In this document: piece after piece, positions 1 through 43,701 of the stretch | Layout of the letters: every line of letters starts with the position of its first letter | Position numbering within the stretch: the first letter of the stretch is position 1 | Made by a program: the position numbers and the translations under genes | Notes under the pieces: model-generated | Seen by the model: the letters and a program-made list of their open reading frames with translations, nothing else | What the model was told of the DNA's origin: nothing | The model's database searches: none | Virus record (IMG/VR): IMGVR_UViG_2571042636_000008 | Span: 1-43,701 of that record | Strand: one strand, 5' to 3' | DNA: 43,701 nt | From: a virus | Lineage: Duplodnaviria; Heunggongvirae; Uroviricota; Caudoviricetes

Positions 1-1260
1 TCATATTCCTATCGCCATGCCATGGGGCATGGATGGGGCAAAGTCCGATAATTTCTGGTTCAACATAGCAATCTGATCGCTGCTGCTGTCGGCCATCCAG
101 GCGCCGTAAACATTGAAAACCATCTGGGCGCTGGAGTGTCCCATCTGGCTGGCAATGAAACTCGGATTGGCCCCGGCAGACAGCGACCAGCAGGCGTAAG
201 TGTGTCTCGACTGATACGCCTTGCGGTGCCTTAAACCTGACCGTTTAAGCGCCGCATCCCATGAGTCACCAACTGAATCGGCTTTGTACAGGTAACCTAC
301 GCTGCCACTTTTTTTAACCAACTGAGGATTGAACACAAATGTACAGTCGTGAATGACCGTTCGGCCATACTCCCGCAGTTGTACCTCAACCTGATACTGC
401 CTGCCTAACCTGGTCATTTCCGCCTGGTTCCTCAAAGCGTCAATGGCTGGCTTGATCAGGTGAACGACCCTGTCGGTACCGGCTTCGGTTTTTGGTAGAG
501 TGAAATCACCGAGTTTCGTATAATTCCGGCGTATGGTCATCGTTCCAGTTTTCAGATCTATGTCTTCCCATGCGAGGGATACCAGCTCACCGTGACGTAA
601 TCCTGTGTATACCGCAATTGACCACAGGTTTTTCGTTTGCTGATGCTTGCAGGCATCAATGAAGCGAACGAATTCATCACGTGTGAGCGGATCTGGTTCT
701 ATCCTGGCCCTCTTTAGCGGCTTGATGCCGTTAAACGGGTTTTCACTCACATAGCCATTATCAACAGCGAACTGAAACATACCCGCGATCGTGGTCATGT
801 AGTAGTTTACCGTCACCACACTCAACCCTTTATCCCCCGCCAGCATATCCTTCCTGATATAGAGAAGCTCTTCTCTTGTCACAGACGAAACCAGCTTATT
901 CGCGCCAACCCTCGGCAGCATGCTTCTCACCACCGATTCATACCTGTTTATGGCATTAGCGCAGATCTCCATCCGTTTAAGCTCAAGCCATTTTTCAGAC
1001 AGATCTTTTACGGTGATATCTTTCTTCCCGATGCCGAAAGTTTTCAGATTTGGCGAGTTGGGGAATTGGGCCGCATAGTCAAAGGTCCCCATGCGGATAG
1101 CGAAACAAACTGACGTTCTCAGCTCCCCGGCCACCTTCCTGTTTTTAGCGGTGTCAGGGACACCGAGGTTTTCCCTGACACGCTTACCTTTAAAAATGAA
1201 CCATATGCGGAGTGACTTTCCGTGGTTCTCAACGCCCGTTGGGTATGATTCTTTACTCAT
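1..1260 (-). CDS. int: Tyrosine-type site-specific integrase
   Basis: 419-aa ORF; C-terminal catalytic region with R...HxxR...Y pattern (LRHRKAYQSRHTYA...VYG) typical of lambda-family integrases; stop codon at window positions 1-3. Confidence 0.9.
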   Translation of the reverse strand: MSKESYPTGVENHGKSLRIWFIFKGKRVRENLGVPDTAKNRKVAGELRTSVCFAIRMGTFDYAAQFPNSPNLKTFGIGKKDITVKDLSEKWLELKRMEICANAINRYESVVRSMLPRVGANKLVSSVTREELLYIRKDMLAGDKGLSVVTVNYYMTTIAGMFQFAVDNGYVSENPFNGIKPLKRARIEPDPLTRDEFVRFIDACKHQQTKNLWSIAVYTGLRHGELVSLAWEDIDLKTGTMTIRRNYTKLGDFTLPKTEAGTDRVVHLIKPAIDALRNQAEMTRLGRQYQVEVQLREYGRTVIHDCTFVFNPQLVKKSGSVGYLYKADSVGDSWDAALKRSGLRHRKAYQSRHTYACWSLSAGANPSFIASQMGHSSAQMVFNVYGAWMADSSSDQIAMLNQKLSDFAPSMPHGMAIGI

Positions 1261-36564: not shown

Positions 36565-36918
36565 ATGCGATACCGTCGAGAAGATGACGATGGGGATTAC
36601 ACCTTCGGTCAGGGCGATGATACCTGGCTGGTTAACTCACCCGAGGCTGTAGCGCAGGCCATTAAAACGCGCTTCCTGCTCTGGTACGGTCAGTGGTTTC
36701 TGGACACCACAGAAGGTACGCCATGGATTCAGTCCGTTCTGGGTAAGCAAAAACCGGATACCTACAACCTCGCTATCCGTAAGCGGATCCTCGAAACGCA
36801 GGGGGTTAGCTCAATCACTGCATTTAACACCACCGTTGACGGTACCACGCGCCGTGTAACGTTCACAGCAACGGTGGAAACCATCTACGGGACAACCACA
36901 GTAACTTCGGAGGCGTAA
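36565..36918 (+). CDS. Baseplate protein (gpW/gp25-like)
   Basis: Start ATG 36565 (MRYRREDDDGDYTFGQG...), about 117 aa, between spike and J-like genes. Confidence 0.5.
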   Translation: MRYRREDDDGDYTFGQGDDTWLVNSPEAVAQAIKTRFLLWYGQWFLDTTEGTPWIQSVLGKQKPDTYNLAIRKRILETQGVSSITAFNTTVDGTTRRVTFTATVETIYGTTTVTSEA

Positions 36919-38114
36919 TGGCTCTGGACCTCGACACACTCGGCTTATCGGCAACGGTAACCGCTGAGGGGATAAGTGCGCCTGATTATCAGACGATACT
37001 CAGCACCCTGATTAGCTATTTTCAGCAGATTTATGGCAGTGATGCCTATCTCGACCCGGACAGCAAAGACGGCCAGATGGTCGCTCTGGTGGCTCTGGCC
37101 ATTCATGATGCCAACAACACGGCTATTTCTGTTTACCGGTCATTTTCTCCGTCGACGGCGCTGGACGATGCATTAACCAGTAACGTCAAAATTAACGGCA
37201 TCGCTCGCCGGGCTGCGACAAATTCTACGGTCGATGAGCTGATCGAAGGTGAGGCCGGAACGTTAATCACAAACGGCTCTGTGAAAGATGCCAACGGCAT
37301 CATCTGGAATCTTCCTGCTCAGGTGACAATTGGTATTGATGGGACGGTTATTGCTACAGCGACGTGTTCTGTTGCTGGCGCTGTGGCGGCCCCTGCCGGG
37401 TCAGTCAATAAGATAAACACCCCGACACGTGGCTGGGTATCAGTAACTAACCCTCAAGCGGCTACCGTTGGCGTTGCTGCCGAAACAAATGCTGAATTGC
37501 GTGTCCGGCAATCACAGAGCGTTGCTTTACCATCTCTGACGCCGTTTGAGGCGGTAGATGGTGCGATAGCAAATATCAGCGGCGTAACCCGTCACAAGCT
37601 GTATGAGAACGATACAGATACCACTGATGCAAATGGCCTGCCGCCGCACTCAATCGCCGCCATTGTAGAAGGTGGTGATGCGACGGTCATTGCAAACAGC
37701 ATTCGTGGTGTGAAAGGGCAGGGCGTAACACCCTACGGTAGTACGGTGATTGTTGTGCCTGATAAGTACGGAAACCCTCACCCGGTAGGTTTTTCAAGGC
37801 CGGTCGATGTACCCATTTACGTCAAAATCACTATCGAACCCCTTACGGGCTACACATCCCAGGTCGGCGAAGAGATAAAGGCGGCTGTATCTGCCTACAT
37901 TAACTCACTGGCAATCGGCGCCAGCGTTCTTCTCAGTCGCGTTTACTCACCGGCTAACCTTGGTGTTGTCAGTGGTGGTAATGCCAGGTATTACGACATT
38001 ACCGAGTTGCTGATCGGGACGTCCGCCGGTGGCGTAGCCGCGGCAAACGTGGATATTGCCTTTGACCAGTCAGCATCCTGCGCCGTCAGCAATATTAATC
38101 TGGTGGTCTCATGA
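36918..38114 (+). CDS. Baseplate J-like protein
   Basis: 398-aa ORF, size and position typical of gpJ/gp6-like wedge proteins. Confidence 0.65.
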   Translation: MALDLDTLGLSATVTAEGISAPDYQTILSTLISYFQQIYGSDAYLDPDSKDGQMVALVALAIHDANNTAISVYRSFSPSTALDDALTSNVKINGIARRAATNSTVDELIEGEAGTLITNGSVKDANGIIWNLPAQVTIGIDGTVIATATCSVAGAVAAPAGSVNKINTPTRGWVSVTNPQAATVGVAAETNAELRVRQSQSVALPSLTPFEAVDGAIANISGVTRHKLYENDTDTTDANGLPPHSIAAIVEGGDATVIANSIRGVKGQGVTPYGSTVIVVPDKYGNPHPVGFSRPVDVPIYVKITIEPLTGYTSQVGEEIKAAVSAYINSLAIGASVLLSRVYSPANLGVVSGGNARYYDITELLIGTSAGGVAAANVDIAFDQSASCAVSNINLVVS

Positions 38115-38884
38115 GCAGATACACTGACCGCATAACAAACTACCACGCCGGTAAACCAAAGTTCTTTGCCCACGTCGACCTGTCCACCAGGCCACTGAGT
38201 GATGTTTCCGATGCCATGTCACGGCTAATACCCGATTTTGATATTGATACCGCCATTGGCGTGCAGCTTGACGTTGTGGGCGAATGGGTTGGTCGTTCCC
38301 GTCGCGTGGCTACACCGGTAACCGGGATTTATTTTTCGTGGGACACCGAGCGGGTTGGCTGGGACCAGGGGATTTGGCAGGGCCCATATGACCCAAACGA
38401 TGGGTTTATCGATCTCAGTGATGAAATATATCGGCTAATGCTGAAGGTGAAAGTGGCGATAAACAACTGGGATGGTCAGAACGATTCGCTTCCTTCAATT
38501 CTTGATGCCGCCCTTGCCGGGTCCGGGATCCGCATGACTATTGTCGACAATCAGGATATGTCGATTTCCATCTGGATACTCGGTGACCCATCGGTATCCC
38601 TAAGTGAAATAGACCGGTTAATTCTGGATAGCGCCGTCAATAAAGGCCCCTTTATCGCATTACCGGCAGGTTACGTACCATCGCGCTATGACATTAACCC
38701 GATTGACCAGGTTAACAGCGAGCTATGGTGGGCGATTCAAAACGGTTATATGACGGTTAAGGCCGCCGGAGTTCGTGTCCGTGAAATAGAGACCGTCAGT
38801 AATGGTTATCAGTTTTTTGGCTTCGATATCGAAAATGACTATATCGCTGGTTTCGACCGCGGGTCATGGGGAGAGAGATTTTAA
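38111..38884 (+). CDS. Baseplate/tail-fibre-associated protein (DUF2612-like)
   Basis: 257-aa ORF, ATGA overlap, precedes fibre gene. Confidence 0.5.
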   Translation: MSRYTDRITNYHAGKPKFFAHVDLSTRPLSDVSDAMSRLIPDFDIDTAIGVQLDVVGEWVGRSRRVATPVTGIYFSWDTERVGWDQGIWQGPYDPNDGFIDLSDEIYRLMLKVKVAINNWDGQNDSLPSILDAALAGSGIRMTIVDNQDMSISIWILGDPSVSLSEIDRLILDSAVNKGPFIALPAGYVPSRYDINPIDQVNSELWWAIQNGYMTVKAAGVRVREIETVSNGYQFFGFDIENDYIAGFDRGSWGERF

Positions 38885-39765
38885 TGGCGACTAACGATTT
38901 TAAGCCCTTCGCTACAGGTAGCGGGGCAAACGTATTATCACAAGCTGATTATGATGCACTGTCGGCCAGAACAACTGGCTTTTTAAGTGGCAAAGCCTCT
39001 TCGGCACAGGTCAACAAAGCTTTAAGGCAGGCATCAACTATTGCGGCGGTTGTGGCGCAGTTTATTTCTGATAACAGCGGCGATGACACCCTTGATAATG
39101 GTAATTTGCCTACCTTGCTGGCCAGTCTCGAAAGCGCCCTTCTCAAGTCCTCCCCTGGGCGGTTACAGAATATCGTTAGCTTTACCGCAAATGGGACCTA
39201 CACCCCATCTCCAGGAACCAAACATGTAAAAGTTATTGTTACTGGCGGTGGTGGTGGCGGGGGTGGTTGTCAGGGAACTTCCGGAGCTGAATCAATTTCA
39301 GGTGGTGGTGGCGGTGCTGGCGGTACGGCCATTGGTTATTTTGCCGTTACTGAATCCAGCTACGCAGTCACTGTAGGTGCTGGTGGTTCTGCTGGCGTTG
39401 GTGCTGTGCAGGGTGGAACAGGCGGAACCTCAATCATTAACGGCATTAGCGGATTGGGCGGAGATGGTGGTCAGAAATCAGGGATCACTACGCTGGCTGG
39501 TGGGAAAGGCGGTGTTTCTATTGGTGGCTCGGTTAACCTTCCCGGAGGTTACGGTACTGATGGGCAAAATGGCTCTCTGATTATCCCCGGCAATGGCGGA
39601 TCATCATATTGGGGCGGCGGTGGTCGTGGGGGCGCACGCGGGGGCGTGGCAGGGGATTGTTATGGTGCCGGTGGTGGTGGTGCATATGATGCTGCCATGT
39701 CTGGTAACTCCTACAATGGCGGACAGGGGAAAGCAGGGATTGTATATATTGAGGAATATTCTTAA
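38884..39765 (+). CDS. Glycine-rich tail fibre protein
   Basis: Conserved fibre-like N-terminus MATNDFKPFATGSGANVLSQADYDAL...; C-terminal Gly-rich repeats (GGGGGGG, GGxGG). Confidence 0.65.
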   Translation: MATNDFKPFATGSGANVLSQADYDALSARTTGFLSGKASSAQVNKALRQASTIAAVVAQFISDNSGDDTLDNGNLPTLLASLESALLKSSPGRLQNIVSFTANGTYTPSPGTKHVKVIVTGGGGGGGGCQGTSGAESISGGGGGAGGTAIGYFAVTESSYAVTVGAGGSAGVGAVQGGTGGTSIINGISGLGGDGGQKSGITTLAGGKGGVSIGGSVNLPGGYGTDGQNGSLIIPGNGGSSYWGGGGRGGARGGVAGDCYGAGGGGAYDAAMSGNSYNGGQGKAGIVYIEEYS

Positions 39766-39934
39766 TGGTAAGCAAATATGCAGTCCTGAAAGATGGCGTG
39801 GTAGAAAACATTATTGTTGCTGATGATAATTACTCTCCTGATGATTTCGAAGTCGTAAAATATAGTGACGAAACATTTTGCCAGCCAGGCATGTTGTACA
39901 ATAAAGAGGATGGTTTATTTTATGATGATAAATA
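39764..39934 (+). CDS. Small acidic ORF (56 aa) coupled to the fibre gene, possible fibre assembly factor
   Basis: ATG overlaps previous stop (TAATG); MVSKYAVLKDGVVENIIVADDNYSPDDFEVVKYSDETFCQPGMLYNKEDGLFYDDK; AT-rich; terminator follows. Confidence 0.35.
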
Positions 39935-39983
39935 ATCATCAAGAATAAATAACATTATCTACATATCTATACATTACCAATCA

Positions 39984-40006
39984 ACCGGCTTATGCCGGTT
40001 TTTTAT
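39984..40006 (+). terminator. Rho-independent terminator
   Basis: ACCGGC-ttat-GCCGGT followed by TTTTTTAT. Confidence 0.6.
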
Positions 40007-40016
40007 TGGGGCGACC

Positions 40017-43000
40017 ATGAGTGAATACGATACCGGCAATCCTGTGCCGTCTGCATCAATGCCTGATGCATGGGATAATATGCAGTCTATTGACAAGTTC
40101 GTTAATAGCAGCGATGAAACCATTACCACACGCACGGGCGAACAGTTAGATACTTTGCATGGCGTTAATGTTAAGGCGGACAACCAGCTAACGCAGCAGC
40201 AAGCAGACTTTGAAACCTCGCAAGAAGAAAGGGATGCTGTAGTTGAGGAAACCAGGCAGAACCTGATCCCTCTCAGCCGGCAGTATATGACACTGGCCGC
40301 GGCACAGGCAGATATTGCTAATATCCCCGAGGGGAGCACTACGTATTACCGAAGCCCTGACGATAGCGCTCTTGCGATAGAGGCAATCAACAACGCCGGT
40401 ACGCTGACCGCAACCGGGAGAAAAATGCCAGCGTACTCTTCTTTGCGCAGAGGCAACATTTTATTCGACGCATTTAATGAATATTCCTCAAGCCTTTTAA
40501 CATTCGCTAACTGGGATTGGTATAAAGGCGCTACGCCAACATTTTCTACTACTGATGTTAATTTGCCGCTTCCAACACCTGTTATTCAAGCTTCTGGTGT
40601 AACATCGTTTGATAAATATTACGATGTGTCAAAATTACAGGTAAAACCAGGAGACACTTTAGCTTTCTCTGTTTTGGTATGGTTCGAGAACGCTGGAGGC
40701 AAGTTACAGATTTATTGGCTTGATTCAGCAGGAGTAACCATCACTACAGGGGAGGCCTCTCCACTGGTTGCTGGTATATCCTCTCCGGTTGTGGTCATTG
40801 CTGTGCCATCTGGCGCATCATCCATACGAATTCGGGTGCAAAACACTGTGTCAGGGGCGTTCAAAATCGGTGTCTATGCCGCAGCTATTGGTGATGTTAC
40901 TCCTGAATTCACAAGGTCTTTCCCTTCAAAAGCGTACCAGGAGGCATTGGGTACCCCTGATAACCTCGTGTACGACCCTTTTGGCGAGATGCTTTCCGTT
41001 CGTCCTAAGCAAGGACTTCCTGCAGGCGTGGTTGACGCCATGAGTTACGCAGGAACATTGATTCAGAACAGCGCAAATTCACCATGGGGTAAGACCGGGA
41101 TCCAAAACACGTCAGGAGTTGGTGCTGATCGTATTATTTCTCTCAGTTCGATGGGGGTTAAGCCGGGAGACACAATCACTGTCCGTCTGGCTGCATGGTT
41201 CGCGTCAACGGGTGGCACGTTTCAGGTTTTCTGTCGTAATGCATCCGGAGTACTTTCTTCGGCAACTATTGCCGCATCAGCATCCGGCTTTAATGATGGA
41301 AGTACCACGCTGACAATACCAGCATCAACGACATACCTTACGCTTCGCGCATCAGGGGCTATGGTCAAGGAGCTGGTTGCCATAGGTGTAGCTTTCGGAC
41401 GATCTCGCCCTGAGTTTATTTACGGTAGCCTTCCAGCAGAGTATTCAGGATACCAGCGCCAGCAGATTAACCTGTGGCCTGATCCCTGGTATCGCCGCTA
41501 CGAGTGCGGGGAAACGTGTATTGATGGTTGGGGTCCTGCTCAAGTAGCAGGGGTTTCACTACCAGCATATGTTGCGGATTATTCTGGCAGCCCGTTTCTT
41601 AGGAAAAAATCTCTGATTATCCCAGTAGGTGGTGGTCAGACGGATATTAACATTTCAGCAAAGCGGCTTGGACTGCGTGCTGGAGATTCGCTGACAGTAG
41701 CGCTGGGTGTGGTATCGTCTCAGGCAATCAACGTGGCAGCATATTTCCGGACGGCTAGCGGGACTGTTATTAGTGACAGTTCGTCTCAGTTGTTCCAGTT
41801 CCCAACCCAGCAATATCAGACTCTGGTTCGCACAATAGCTATCACCCAGACTATTGTTGATACGGCTGGATATCTGCAAATCCGCCTTATGAATGGGCAG
41901 ACTGTTGGCGCTGCAGGTGTTTATGTTGTTGCCAGGGGGCTCTTTGTTGGGAATGGCTCTCCTGTACTGAGTGATGATACGTACCGACAGGATGTCGATT
42001 ACACAACTTCCAGAGCATTCACGTTAAATCAGGATTCACTCAGAGAGACACATAAGCGCCTGATGAACAGGCGGCTTTCTCAGTCAGCAACACTGGTAAC
42101 AGCGCACATTGGCGATAGCTGGACTCACCTGTGGAACCGATGGAGCGGAATTTTTGCCGGAAAAATGCAGGCTGACTATGGCAGTGCAGGTATCGGCTAT
42201 ATCGGATTTGGCTATCCGTCTGAGGCGGGTTTCGGGCAGTATAACGGCAATATACTTGGTCAGATAACTTTGACCAAAACAGGAACATGGACTCCGACAT
42301 ATGCGGCAGCACAGAGCGCAGATATTTGTAGCGTCTCGTCTTCTGATACCACCGCTACTTTCAGGGCGAACGGTATACCGGCAAATGCATCGTCAGTCCG
42401 CCTTTTTGCTAAACCTCAGGGGAGTGTTAAATACAGCACAGATGGTGGAGTTAACTGGACAACTATCGACCTGAGCACGTTCACTGACCTTGCGGTTGTC
42501 AGCCTCACGGTACCGGCAACAGCTTTCAATATCTGGTTCAGTCCGGTATCAGGAACCGTTGAACTGTACGGTCTGGATGTGCAGACCGCGACAGATGGTG
42601 TCCGGTCTCACAAGCTGGGTGCGACGGGGAGTTCTGCTCAACAATGGGCGGCGCAGGTTACCAGCGCAACATGGAAAGCAGCATTCACCGCGCTGGCCCC
42701 CAATCTGGTGACAATTCTGCATGGGACCAATGACCAGACATCATCCCGTGATCCATCCGCGTTTGCTGCCGATATTCAGACGATAATCACAGCAGTTCGC
42801 ACTGCATGCCCGTTGGCTGATGTTCTGGTGATCATGCCATGTGAAAACCAGAGGAATAACAATGTGGCAATGGCGGCGTATGCGTCTGTTGTACGGGATG
42901 TTTGTGCGCTAAACAGGGTGGCTTATCACAATCTCCAGATTGACTACGGAGACAAGCCATCTGATTACGCATCGACATCTCCACGCAACTGGTTCAATGC

Positions 43001-43073
43001 TGATGGAATCCATCCTGACCCTGCAACTGGAGGTGGGCTGCCGATCGTTTCTGCTGTTTTGAAGTTAATGTAA
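40017..43073 (+). CDS. Tail fibre/tailspike with three internal repeat modules and C-terminal SGNH/GDSL-type hydrolase (esterase) domain
   Basis: 1018 aa; three divergent ~115-aa repeats each containing (V/L)KPGD(T/S)...WF...; SGNH block I HIGDSWTH and block V DGIHPD near C-terminus. Confidence 0.75.
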   Translation: MSEYDTGNPVPSASMPDAWDNMQSIDKFVNSSDETITTRTGEQLDTLHGVNVKADNQLTQQQADFETSQEERDAVVEETRQNLIPLSRQYMTLAAAQADIANIPEGSTTYYRSPDDSALAIEAINNAGTLTATGRKMPAYSSLRRGNILFDAFNEYSSSLLTFANWDWYKGATPTFSTTDVNLPLPTPVIQASGVTSFDKYYDVSKLQVKPGDTLAFSVLVWFENAGGKLQIYWLDSAGVTITTGEASPLVAGISSPVVVIAVPSGASSIRIRVQNTVSGAFKIGVYAAAIGDVTPEFTRSFPSKAYQEALGTPDNLVYDPFGEMLSVRPKQGLPAGVVDAMSYAGTLIQNSANSPWGKTGIQNTSGVGADRIISLSSMGVKPGDTITVRLAAWFASTGGTFQVFCRNASGVLSSATIAASASGFNDGSTTLTIPASTTYLTLRASGAMVKELVAIGVAFGRSRPEFIYGSLPAEYSGYQRQQINLWPDPWYRRYECGETCIDGWGPAQVAGVSLPAYVADYSGSPFLRKKSLIIPVGGGQTDINISAKRLGLRAGDSLTVALGVVSSQAINVAAYFRTASGTVISDSSSQLFQFPTQQYQTLVRTIAITQTIVDTAGYLQIRLMNGQTVGAAGVYVVARGLFVGNGSPVLSDDTYRQDVDYTTSRAFTLNQDSLRETHKRLMNRRLSQSATLVTAHIGDSWTHLWNRWSGIFAGKMQADYGSAGIGYIGFGYPSEAGFGQYNGNILGQITLTKTGTWTPTYAAAQSADICSVSSSDTTATFRANGIPANASSVRLFAKPQGSVKYSTDGGVNWTTIDLSTFTDLAVVSLTVPATAFNIWFSPVSGTVELYGLDVQTATDGVRSHKLGATGSSAQQWAAQVTSATWKAAFTALAPNLVTILHGTNDQTSSRDPSAFAADIQTIITAVRTACPLADVLVIMPCENQRNNNVAMAAYASVVRDVCALNRVAYHNLQIDYGDKPSDYASTSPRNWFNADGIHPDPATGGGLPIVSAVLKLM

Positions 43074-43105
43074 AACTCCTACATTGATCTTCCCTCACAA
43101 CAATA

Positions 43106-43125
43106 ATACTGTATGTTTGTACAGT
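43106..43125. promoter_or_regulatory. LexA (SOS) box
   Basis: TACTGTATGTTTGTACAGTA matches CTGT-N8-ACAG consensus in 17 of 20 positions and lies within a 12-bp perfect inverted repeat, 20 bp upstream of the next ATG. Confidence 0.75.
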
Positions 43126-43144
43126 ATTATTGGGAGGGCAGATC

Positions 43145-43384
43145 ATGCTTCGACAGTCAGACATCGCAGCGGCGTTCCGCGAGTCGGTATTGCGCAGTTC
43201 CAAGGGGTTCCAGTACCTTCACACCCGCGACTTCGTTACCGCGCTGCGCCGGCGCGGCATCCATTTTTCCGAGGTGGAGGCGAACTCCTGGATCGCACGC
43301 GAGCAAACGTATTTCGTCGACAAAACGGCAGAGCATAGTGAAAACTGCCTGTGGATGATGGCCAACATGGGGAGGATTCTGTAA
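43145..43384 (+). CDS. Small SOS-regulated protein of unknown function
   Basis: 79 aa; GGGAGGG RBS; directly downstream of the LexA box; coupled (TAATG) to the UmuD'-like gene. Confidence 0.55.
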   Translation: MLRQSDIAAAFRESVLRSSKGFQYLHTRDFVTALRRRGIHFSEVEANSWIAREQTYFVDKTAEHSENCLWMMANMGRIL

Positions 43385-43701
43385 TGGGCTTTCCATCACC
43401 GGCGACGGACTACACGGAACAGCGATTAACGGTTAACTCGATCTGCAGTGTTGGGCCAAATACGCGCCTCTTCGAGCGTTCAGGCGGTTACGTTGTGCTG
43501 GATATCTCCCTGAAGCCATCACAAGGTAGTCAGGTTCTGATCCAGCACGGCGGCGGGACGGAGCTTGCCACGCTGAGAGGAAAGTCGCTGATTACCGAAG
43601 ATGGCGAAGCGATCGAGGGCGAGGCCTTGGACGATGTTAATGTCATCGGCGTCGTGACGTTTACTATCTGCGATGTGCGCCAGGACAATGCGGTTGTTTA
43701 G
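43384..43701 (+). CDS. UmuD'-like (S24-fold) protein lacking N-terminal arm and canonical catalytic Ser
   Basis: Begins MGFPSPATDYTEQRLTVN, matching the UmuD' N-terminus created by UmuD self-cleavage; C-terminal VIGVV like UmuD FGVV; SGDSM position reads SGGYV; stop codon is the last 3 nt of the window. Confidence 0.6.
   Translation: MGFPSPATDYTEQRLTVNSICSVGPNTRLFERSGGYVVLDISLKPSQGSQVLIQHGGGTELATLRGKSLITEDGEAIEGEALDDVNVIGVVTFTICDVRQDNAVV

Follow-up and report, generated by a model that had tools for sequence, protein, structure and literature searches.

A predicted Ape1-like O-acetylesterase fibre with a jelly-roll module array in an exchangeable slot of a temperate Klebsiella phage

We analyse the gene at 40017-43073 (plus strand) of a 43,701-nucleotide stretch of viral DNA, IMG/VR record IMGVR_UViG_2571042636_000008; the whole of this stretch is called the window below. 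The gene is probably that of a receptor-binding protein, in the form of an exchangeable side fibre, in a temperate Klebsiella myophage of Mulock/Wanchaivirus-like type. This fibre would anchor to the virion, bind a surface glycan, and deacetylate host polysaccharide; the enzymatic step is predicted from conserved sequence, structure models, and analogy with characterized proteins. We report its gene position, domain anatomy, catalytic-residue conservation, fold matches, cassette exchange, and variable module copy number. An earlier note on this DNA, made from the letters and without database searches, had placed a 1018-amino-acid open reading frame (ORF) at exactly these coordinates and on this strand, and had proposed a receptor-modifying SGNH esterase fibre. 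Residue conservation, an O-acetylesterase fold match, jelly-roll repeats, and exchange of the fibre body all support that core proposal.

SGNH esterase fibres have recently come to be seen as the dominant enzymatic receptor-binding proteins of temperate Klebsiella phages. The present fibre is a well-formed member of a class already reported in 2026, not a new kind of system, and its analysis does not overturn current understanding. The locus is a convenient template for domain-swap and host-range experiments: it combines precise boundaries, mutable catalytic residues, an insert, and an array that ranges from 1 to 4 units. It also helps to annotate the hundreds of entries named "SGNH/GDSL hydrolase family protein" in Klebsiella, E. 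coli, Serratia, and Burkholderia genomes.

Domain organization of the fibre

The window as a whole is a prophage: an integrase lies on the minus strand at its left end (1..1260), and its structural module is of myovirus type. Backbone identity is 97.7% to Wanchaivirus PDP110P2 and about 93% to Klebsiella phage Mulock. The gene lies in the tail/baseplate module and joins a conserved anchor at the N-terminus to an exchangeable body at the C-terminus, the arrangement of a receptor-binding fibre; its product matches phrog_38670, "tail fiber protein", at 1724 bits, and has no NCBIfam model. The features of the gene are as follows (aa, amino acids).

40017..43073, plus strand: tail-fibre / receptor-binding protein gene, 1018 aa
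40017..40277, plus strand: N1, aa 1-87, virion-attachment anchor common to other receptor-binding proteins of the phage lineage
40278..40451, plus strand: N2, aa 88-145, conserved junction domain (QNLIPLS...TGRKMP), ending at the recombination breakpoint
40431..43083, plus strand: cassette exchanged relative to PDP110P2, from codon ~138 to 10 nucleotides (nt) beyond the stop codon
40452..40961, plus strand: R1, aa 146-315, β-jelly-roll like a carbohydrate-binding module (CBM), R1 subtype
40962..41474, plus strand: R2, aa 316-486, CBM-like β-jelly-roll, R2 subtype
41475..42020, plus strand: R3, aa 487-668, diverged CBM-like module, R3 subtype
42021..42182, plus strand: SGNH segment 1, aa 669-722, with β1, block I G699-D700-S701 (Ser codon 42117-42119), and helix α1
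42183..42596, plus strand: β-sandwich insert, aa ~723-860, separating SGNH block I from block II, in a position like that of the Ape1 CBM35
42597..43070, plus strand: SGNH segment 2, aa 861-1018, with blocks II, III, and V
42627-42629, plus strand: codon of G871 in block II, LGATG, aa 867-871
42729-42731, plus strand: codon of N905 in block III, GTND, aa 903-906
43002-43004 and 43011-43013, plus strand: codons of D996 and H999 in block V, DGIH

A predicted SGNH esterase split by a β-sandwich insert

The C-terminal region carries the blocks expected of an SGNH/GDSL hydrolase, GDSW at residues 699-702 and DGIHPD at 996-1001, both as first read from the sequence. The Pfam family Lipase_GDSL_2 (E = 5e-14) aligns only to residues 862-1003, at profile positions 33-174, and the GDS of block I lies about 160 residues upstream of the aligned part, so that the SGNH domain is split by an insert. 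The C-terminal esterase domain of the earlier note is present with all four blocks, but it is not contiguous, and a β-sandwich of about 140 residues within it had been overlooked.

The residues on which catalysis would depend are strongly conserved. Across an alignment of 30 sequences (the fibre and 29 homologues), G699, D700, S701, T904, N905, D906, and H999 are invariant, and N905 is kept in at least 90% of 35 diverse proteins. All insertion-bearing homologues retain D996 and conserve LGATG (867-871), which falls at the beginning of the Lipase_GDSL_2 alignment (from profile position 33), as LGA(S/T)G; D996 is replaced by Glu only in a subfamily of ~780-residue proteins from which the insert is absent. 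The predicted catalytic triad is Ser701-His999-Asp996, with Gly871 and Asn905 as putative oxyanion residues; by analogy, the oxyanion glycine would be G871 rather than G868. A Ser/Asp/His triad missing on alignment had been named beforehand as grounds for giving up the esterase reading, and the triad is both present and conserved.

This conservation bears on the proposal that the fibre is a non-catalytic adhesin, in which the SGNH domain and the CBM-like modules would only bind an acetylated glycan, hydrolysis being unneeded for infection. Many phage fibre tips are pure lectins, R1-R3 together with the insert would give several putative sugar-binding domains, and activity in this SGNH subfamily is itself a prediction from sequence. 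Yet all five catalytic and oxyanion residues are kept in relatives down to ~30-50% identity in the esterase segments, and other SGNH fibres that have been assayed are active. Because such retention would be unexpected after a loss of catalysis, we regard a purely binding role as unlikely and favour an active esterase.

Structure modelling places the insert within a recognizable enzyme fold. The AlphaFold2 (AF2) model has a predicted local distance difference test score (pLDDT) of ~80-90 over residues 670-1018, including the all-β segment 725-857. The core has the three-layer α/β/α fold: Foldseek matches it to Ape1, to CE2 esterases, and to TesA. The top match in the PDB is the peptidoglycan O-acetylesterase Ape1, first N. 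meningitidis 4k3u (E = 6e-17); this and the C. jejuni structures 8gld and 8gkd align over ~370 columns, the whole Ape1 chain, with template modelling (TM) scores, by target, of 0.69-0.72 (0.70 for the match at E = 6e-17). The CE2 esterases rank well under Ape1 (TM ~0.35), and E. coli TesA matches only over a core of ~165 residues (E = 1.8e-5). A search of the PDB with the single fibre sequence found nothing meaningful. The C. jejuni enzyme (CjApe1) did give a family-profile match, marginal at E = 1.4e-3 and confined to the SGNH part that follows the insert.

In CjApe1, a CBM35 domain interrupts the SGNH fold, with the catalytic S73 before it and G237 after it; loops of the CBM35 line the active-site cleft and are required for full activity. 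The fibre shares this plan of an SGNH α/β/α core with a β-sandwich between the Ser of block I and the Gly of block II, and its insert would likely shape the substrate groove, as the Ape1 insert forms one groove wall. The two differ in that identity is 12-16% and that Ape1 is a periplasmic housekeeping enzyme of peptidoglycan, whereas the fibre unit sits at a phage fibre tip with capsule or O-antigen as its presumed target. We describe the modelled unit as Ape1-like in architecture; since sequence similarity is marginal, we claim neither membership of the Ape1 family nor the same substrate.

The same fold matches speak to whether the substrate might instead be outer-membrane lipids or the acyl chains of lipid A, the enzyme being a lipase or lysophospholipase. 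A Serratia homologue is named "lysophospholipase L1-like esterase" and TesA is among the matches to the SGNH core. Such database names are automatic, however; the TesA match covers the core only, and its E-value of 1.8e-5 is far weaker than the 6e-17 of Ape1; Ape1 and CE2, which match as two-domain carbohydrate esterases, rank above it; and the CBM-like context points to glycans. Action on lipids is thus very improbable, and a carbohydrate esterase is the reading that we carry forward.

The insert is distinct from the modules that precede the esterase. Comparison of the insert with R1-R3 by hhalign gave probabilities below 5%, which rules it out as a fourth copy of the repeat. It contains an Asp-box/BNR-like motif, STDGGVNWTT, at 42432-42461 (residues 806-815), conserved as DGGxxWT in the family consensus; the Pfam BNR match to it is below threshold (E = 0.14).

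Three jelly-roll modules between anchor and esterase

Between the anchor and the esterase, the earlier note had read three divergent tandem repeats of ~115 residues, each with a KPGD(T/S)...WF core, as triplicated carbohydrate-binding modules. Three units are indeed found by profile comparison and by structure modelling, but the period is ~170 residues, and ~115 residues describe the β-sandwich core only. Each unit has in addition an N-terminal segment of ~50 residues and a linker helix, and begins with N-(I/L)-x-x-D-(A/P)-(F/W): NILFDAF at 146, NLVYDPF at 316, and NLWPDPW at 487. The core motif is intact in two units, with KPGD at 210 and 382 followed ~12 residues on by WF at 222 and 394; in the third it is degenerate, with RAGDS at 554 and a YF placed ~10 residues further along than in the other two.

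Alignment of the protein to itself separates the first pair of repeats from the third. BLASTP of the fibre protein against itself found no internal repeats. Smith-Waterman alignment of residues 150-318 (R1), 319-486 (R2), and 487-665 (R3), with 300 shuffles, gave z = 16.5 for R1-R2 and z = 4.1 for R2-R3 (a score reached by 1 of the 300 shuffles); R1-R3 was not significant (z = 1.6). Self-alignment, on which the repeats had been made to depend, thus upholds R1-R2 and leaves the third repeat borderline, and it is profile-profile comparison that settles the question. With all homologues, hhalign probabilities are 99.9% for R1-R2, 98.7% for R2-R3, and 97.2% for R1-R3. With collinear homologues only, they are 99.7% for R1-R2, 96.3% for R1-R3 (E = 2e-9), and 95.7% for R2-R3 (E = 1e-8); an artefact of MAFFT-misregistered repeats from shorter homologues was considered for R2-R3 and rejected, as its similarity is still ~96% with strictly collinear sequences. 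At the DNA level there is no repeat beyond a single 25-nt pair at 72% identity. Recent duplication of the modules is rejected on this ground, and the duplication is therefore old.

Structure models agree with the profiles on the third unit. The full-length AF2 model, built from 30 sequences, is poor over residues 464-666, which cover R3, so a second model with a deeper alignment was needed. This model, of residues 140-680 from 48 diverse sequences, has a mean pLDDT of 88.3 (~80-97 in R3) and contains three all-β domains with the same order of 9-10 strands, offset by about +171 residues, each followed by a short helix.

The modelled fold of R1-R3 is a β-sandwich jelly-roll of CBM type (CBM4/16/22-like), and its structural counterparts include the CBM-like domains of the Klebsiella phage fibres Kp7 gp52 (10.2) and KP32gp38 (10.1). 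Identity to CBM22, CBM4, and CBM16-type modules is 7-14%, and residues 146-668 match no Pfam or NCBIfam family even at E <= 1, and thus no CBM family. The carbohydrate-binding label is accordingly borne out for the fold but not for family membership; since no CBM family matches, it is the modelled fold that suggests that R1-R3 may bind sugar.

An old array of variable copy number

The module array belongs to a narrow family, judged by sequence searches, whereas the SGNH part has thousands of relatives: an exhaustive HMMER scan of 1.84 billion cluster representatives with residues 150-670 returned 45 matches only. A hidden Markov model (HMM) of the repeat finds from 1 to 4 units per protein, mostly followed by recognizable SGNH motifs. 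The units of distant relatives were typed with subtype HMMs for which close homologues alone had been used. Among distant proteins with three copies, the third unit is of R3 subtype in all nine, the first is R1 in eight, and the second is R2 in six; where there are two copies, the last unit is R3 in 15 of 21. Given these positional subtypes and the range of 1-4 copies, the triplication is best read, on this sequence typing, as one state of an old and variable array in which the esterase-proximal unit is the most constant.

The same array-plus-esterase architecture is also found outside Klebsiella. A protein from Burkholderia vietnamiensis (P0121 / P0165) has four units in the order R1-R1-R1-R3. 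Another example is a chromosomal protein of Serratia fonticola (P0013), 70% identical over 91% of the query.

We put forward, as a speculative idea with low odds, that the array may be a tunable "ruler" or avidity device rather than a passive spacer. An R3-type unit nearly always adjoins the esterase, and upstream of it R1/R2-type units are gained, lost, or duplicated, from a single copy to the R1-R1-R1-R3 of Burkholderia. If so, the array could set how deep the esterase reaches into the capsule or which glycan epitopes are read, and copy number and R1 swapping, not the enzyme, would determine host range. An Ape1-like deacetylase fibre without a depolymerase would then suffice for capsule-specific infection by temperate Klebsiella phages.

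Anchor, cassette exchange, and the choice of substrate

The N-terminal part of the fibre is shared with phages that carry other bodies. N1 is 90-93% identical at the nucleotide level to PDP110P2 and P18-100 and has a profile match to the tail protein gp13, PDB 9occ_G (E = 1e-5). Many PHROG matches are restricted to residues 88-141, within N2. Foldseek also lists CBA120 TSP4 and K2-2 TSP in the PDB, with matches the size of an N-terminal domain (122-136 columns); these presumably correspond to N1/N2.

Comparison with PDP110P2 locates the exchange. By blastn, the two are similar over 38802-40430 (95.9%) and 43084-43679 (87.8%), with no similarity in between. Identity breaks at ~40390-40430. The stretch between the two blocks, 40431-43083, is the exchanged cassette, and it begins just past the conserved TGRKMP junction. 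Modular exchange, suspected from the start, is thus borne out by near-identical phages that bear other bodies on the same anchor, but its boundary falls within the gene, at codon ~138, and not upstream of it.

What occupies the slot in relatives guides the choice of substrate. The PDP110P2 fibre in this slot has 857 aa and sits on the same anchor, with a body similar to that of 174_38-KL55. This anchor (MSEYDTGNPVPSAS...) also bears β-helix depolymerases in the supplements of PMC13123978, among them 1724_71, which is listed as active on KL60. Because the same anchor carries either a 174_38-type SGNH fibre or β-helix depolymerases in relatives, the slot is read as the capsule-directed receptor-binding slot of the lineage. 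This is the main reason for preferring capsule over O-antigen: by analogy with these relatives, capsule is the most likely substrate and O-antigen a less likely one.

The slot also bears on a third alternative, in which the fibre would be a functional analogue of Ape1, a virion peptidoglycan O-acetylesterase that, as the genome is delivered, prepares the wall for the phage lytic transglycosylase. In its favour, the Neisseria and Campylobacter Ape1 enzymes head the structural matches, with the same insertion topology, and the annotation of related phages includes a protein with a lytic transglycosylase domain. However, a distal and exchangeable slot that holds capsule depolymerases in sister phages is far from peptidoglycan, three preceding CBM-like modules are typical of surface-glycan recognition, and sequence similarity to Ape1 is marginal (E = 1.4e-3). 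O-acetylation of peptidoglycan is, moreover, not known from Klebsiella, which counts against this alternative. A role in the cell wall is therefore highly unlikely, and deacetylation of a surface polysaccharide is the function that we develop below.

Exchange extends to individual modules and to other anchors. P0019-type proteins share residues 1-145 at 100%, R1 at 56%, and nothing downstream. P0002, P0008, P0009, and P0010 share R2 through the esterase at 88-100% and R1 at only 66-80%. In P0004, P0005, P0007, and P0011 the same body is joined to anchors that are unrelated, among them PF18668 and lambda-type PF08400 N-termini. R1 behaves as an independently mobile unit, because it has diverged where the remainder is conserved (the P0002 group) and is found at 56% with an unrelated body (P0019).

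A further match concerns positions 40346-40819, the junction domain and most of R1, which are 88.7% identical at the nucleotide level to OP558001.1 30631-31104. The matching gene belongs to the lytic Klebsiella phage vB_KpnM_NDO71 (136 kb). Its product, a "tail spike protein" (P0060, 642 aa), carries PF18668 and PF13884, and the precomputed annotations of this protein hold no SGNH match. From the sequences, this match indicates probable module traffic between temperate and lytic phages.

Proposed function

We propose the following sequence of events. Residues 1-145 would fix the fibre to the baseplate, probably through a trimeric anchor. The three jelly-roll modules of residues 146-668 may hold the fibre on host surface polysaccharide through multivalent, low-affinity contacts. 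At the tip, residues 669-1018 would act as an Ape1-like two-domain O-acetylesterase, an SGNH core with a β-sandwich inserted after block I. The virion would thus present a "brush" of three flexible arms, each with three putative glycan-binding modules and a terminal O-acetylesterase. The enzyme would remove O-acetyl groups from capsular polysaccharide, or possibly O-antigen, without cleaving the chain, and deacetylation may leave a glycan that the phage is able to bind or to pass through, which has been shown for G7C gp63.1 and Possum gp66.

Several points weigh against this proposal. The two Klebsiella fibres of this kind that have been tested differ from the present one in body and in SGNH subtype. 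In structure, the protein is closest to peptidoglycan esterases and not to a capsule or O-antigen esterase. No CBM family of Pfam or NCBIfam matches R1-R3. K-locus specificity is on average lower for SGNH receptor-binding proteins than for depolymerases (PMC13123978), and for this reason a capsule target is not assured. Lastly, a terminator-like hairpin lies 10 nt before the start codon with no promoter-like site in between, an arrangement that does not readily account for expression of the fibre gene.

Comparison with known systems

Among the enzymatic receptor-binding domains of Klebsiella prophages, those of SGNH fibres are the most prevalent (Otwinowska et al., PLoS Biol 2026, PMC13123978). 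In a genome-wide association study they were predictors of K-locus, supplying 6 of the 16 best predictors, and two SGNH fibres, 164_08-KL2 and 174_38-KL55, are active acetyl-esterases that hydrolyse p-nitrophenyl acetate; the authors propose capsule deacetylation as an alternative to depolymerization (PMC13123978). The present fibre shares with these two the host genus, the temperate kind of phage, the receptor-binding slot, and a C-terminal SGNH esterase on a non-depolymerase fibre. Its N-terminal anchor has a homologue in the anchor of 164_08-type proteins, for example P0001, and a 174_38-type fibre occupies the same slot in the 97.7%-identical sister phage PDP110P2. In contrast, 164_08 has a different catalytic motif (GQSLSNG), has no R1-R3 array, and differs in its body. 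Signature peptides of the fibre body are absent from the supplements of PMC13123978, where the anchor alone is present.

Outside Klebsiella, the closest functional parallels are G7C gp63.1 of an E. coli phage and gp66 of the Pectobacterium phage Possum, likewise SGNH receptor-binding proteins, which deacetylate the receptor polysaccharide without depolymerizing it; for Possum gp66, deacetylation of O-polysaccharide was established by nuclear magnetic resonance (PMC9569702). These come from podovirus/N4-like lytic phages and have another overall architecture, and neither is described with a CBM-like array of 1-4 copies. G7C gp63.1 is not among the top 50 PDB fold matches of the fibre.

A close match in architecture is a 1122-aa protein of Proteus phage Mydo, a 145-kb lytic myophage. 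It gives a whole-length structural match in BFVD (E = 3e-46, ~1035 columns, 26% identity) and by tblastn at 40% identity over residues 102-1006; it has the same architecture and is uncharacterized. Judging by names, it may belong to a class that a preprint defines by fold matching. Among phages of Gordonia, Arthrobacter, Rhodococcus, and Klebsiella, BFVD also holds many tail-protein units of ~380-420 residues that are Ape1-like. The accessible portions of the earlier papers do not appear to set out the Ape1-type insertion topology, the position-specific array subtypes, or the precise limits of the cassette.

Neighbouring genes and flanking sequence

The genes and signals just upstream of the fibre gene are as follows.

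36918-38114: Baseplate_J gene
38111-38884: DUF2612 gene
38866-39765: Gly_rich_2 tail fibre gene
39765..39935, plus strand: 56-aa ORF that separates the Gly-rich from the esterase fibre gene; phrog_18617, E = 1e-23, unknown function
39983-40000, plus strand: terminator-like GC-rich hairpin AACCGGC-TTAT-GCCGGTT, with a T-run to 40006, ending 10 nt before the fibre ATG

The hairpin and its T-run are real (folding energy -15.8 kcal/mol; z = -3.0, more exactly -2.98), in line with the terminator reported for the gene, but they belong to the conserved backbone and not to the exchanged cassette: the hairpin stretch is identical to PDP110P2 at 30 of 30 positions. What had been taken for an AT-rich leader of the fibre gene is mostly occupied by the 56-aa ORF. 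Both elements, which had been tied to modular exchange, are 100% conserved backbone relative to PDP110P2, and nucleotide comparison with that phage rules them out as the cassette boundary. Terminator-like sites are not enriched in the region over shuffled sequence (5 found against 4.5 expected), and a scan found no promoter-like site between the hairpin and the fibre ATG. Because the hairpin ends 10 nt before the ATG with no promoter-like site between them, fibre expression seemingly requires read-through or attenuation past the hairpin, which could set fibre stoichiometry.

The 56-aa ORF (MVSKYAVLKDGVVENII...) has a start codon that overlaps the stop of the Gly-rich fibre gene (TAATG). It is near-identical in PDP110P2 and thus part of the conserved backbone, and it has no match in Pfam or NCBIfam. 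It may encode a small fibre-assembly or accessory protein.

Downstream, 34 nt past the fibre stop, lies a perfect LexA (SOS) box, TACTGTATGTTTGTACAGTA, at 43107-43126 (chance expectation 0.02). It is followed by a 79-aa ORF at 43145-43384 (phrog_3893, function unknown in PHROG) and, overlapping it, a 105-aa UmuD'/HumD-like ORF at 43384-43701 (phrog_3469, E = 2e-46), which scores 42 bits against NCBIfam HumD, under the 120-bit cut-off. The region 43107-43701, 87.8% identical in PDP110P2, looks like an SOS-controlled accessory module at the right end of the prophage. In PDP110P2 (L002 23829-24860), a second Gly-rich tail-fibre gene of 343 aa lies downstream of the SGNH fibre and of the counterpart of the LexA-box module. 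The prophage may continue past the end of the window, since the window stops before the position equivalent to that gene.

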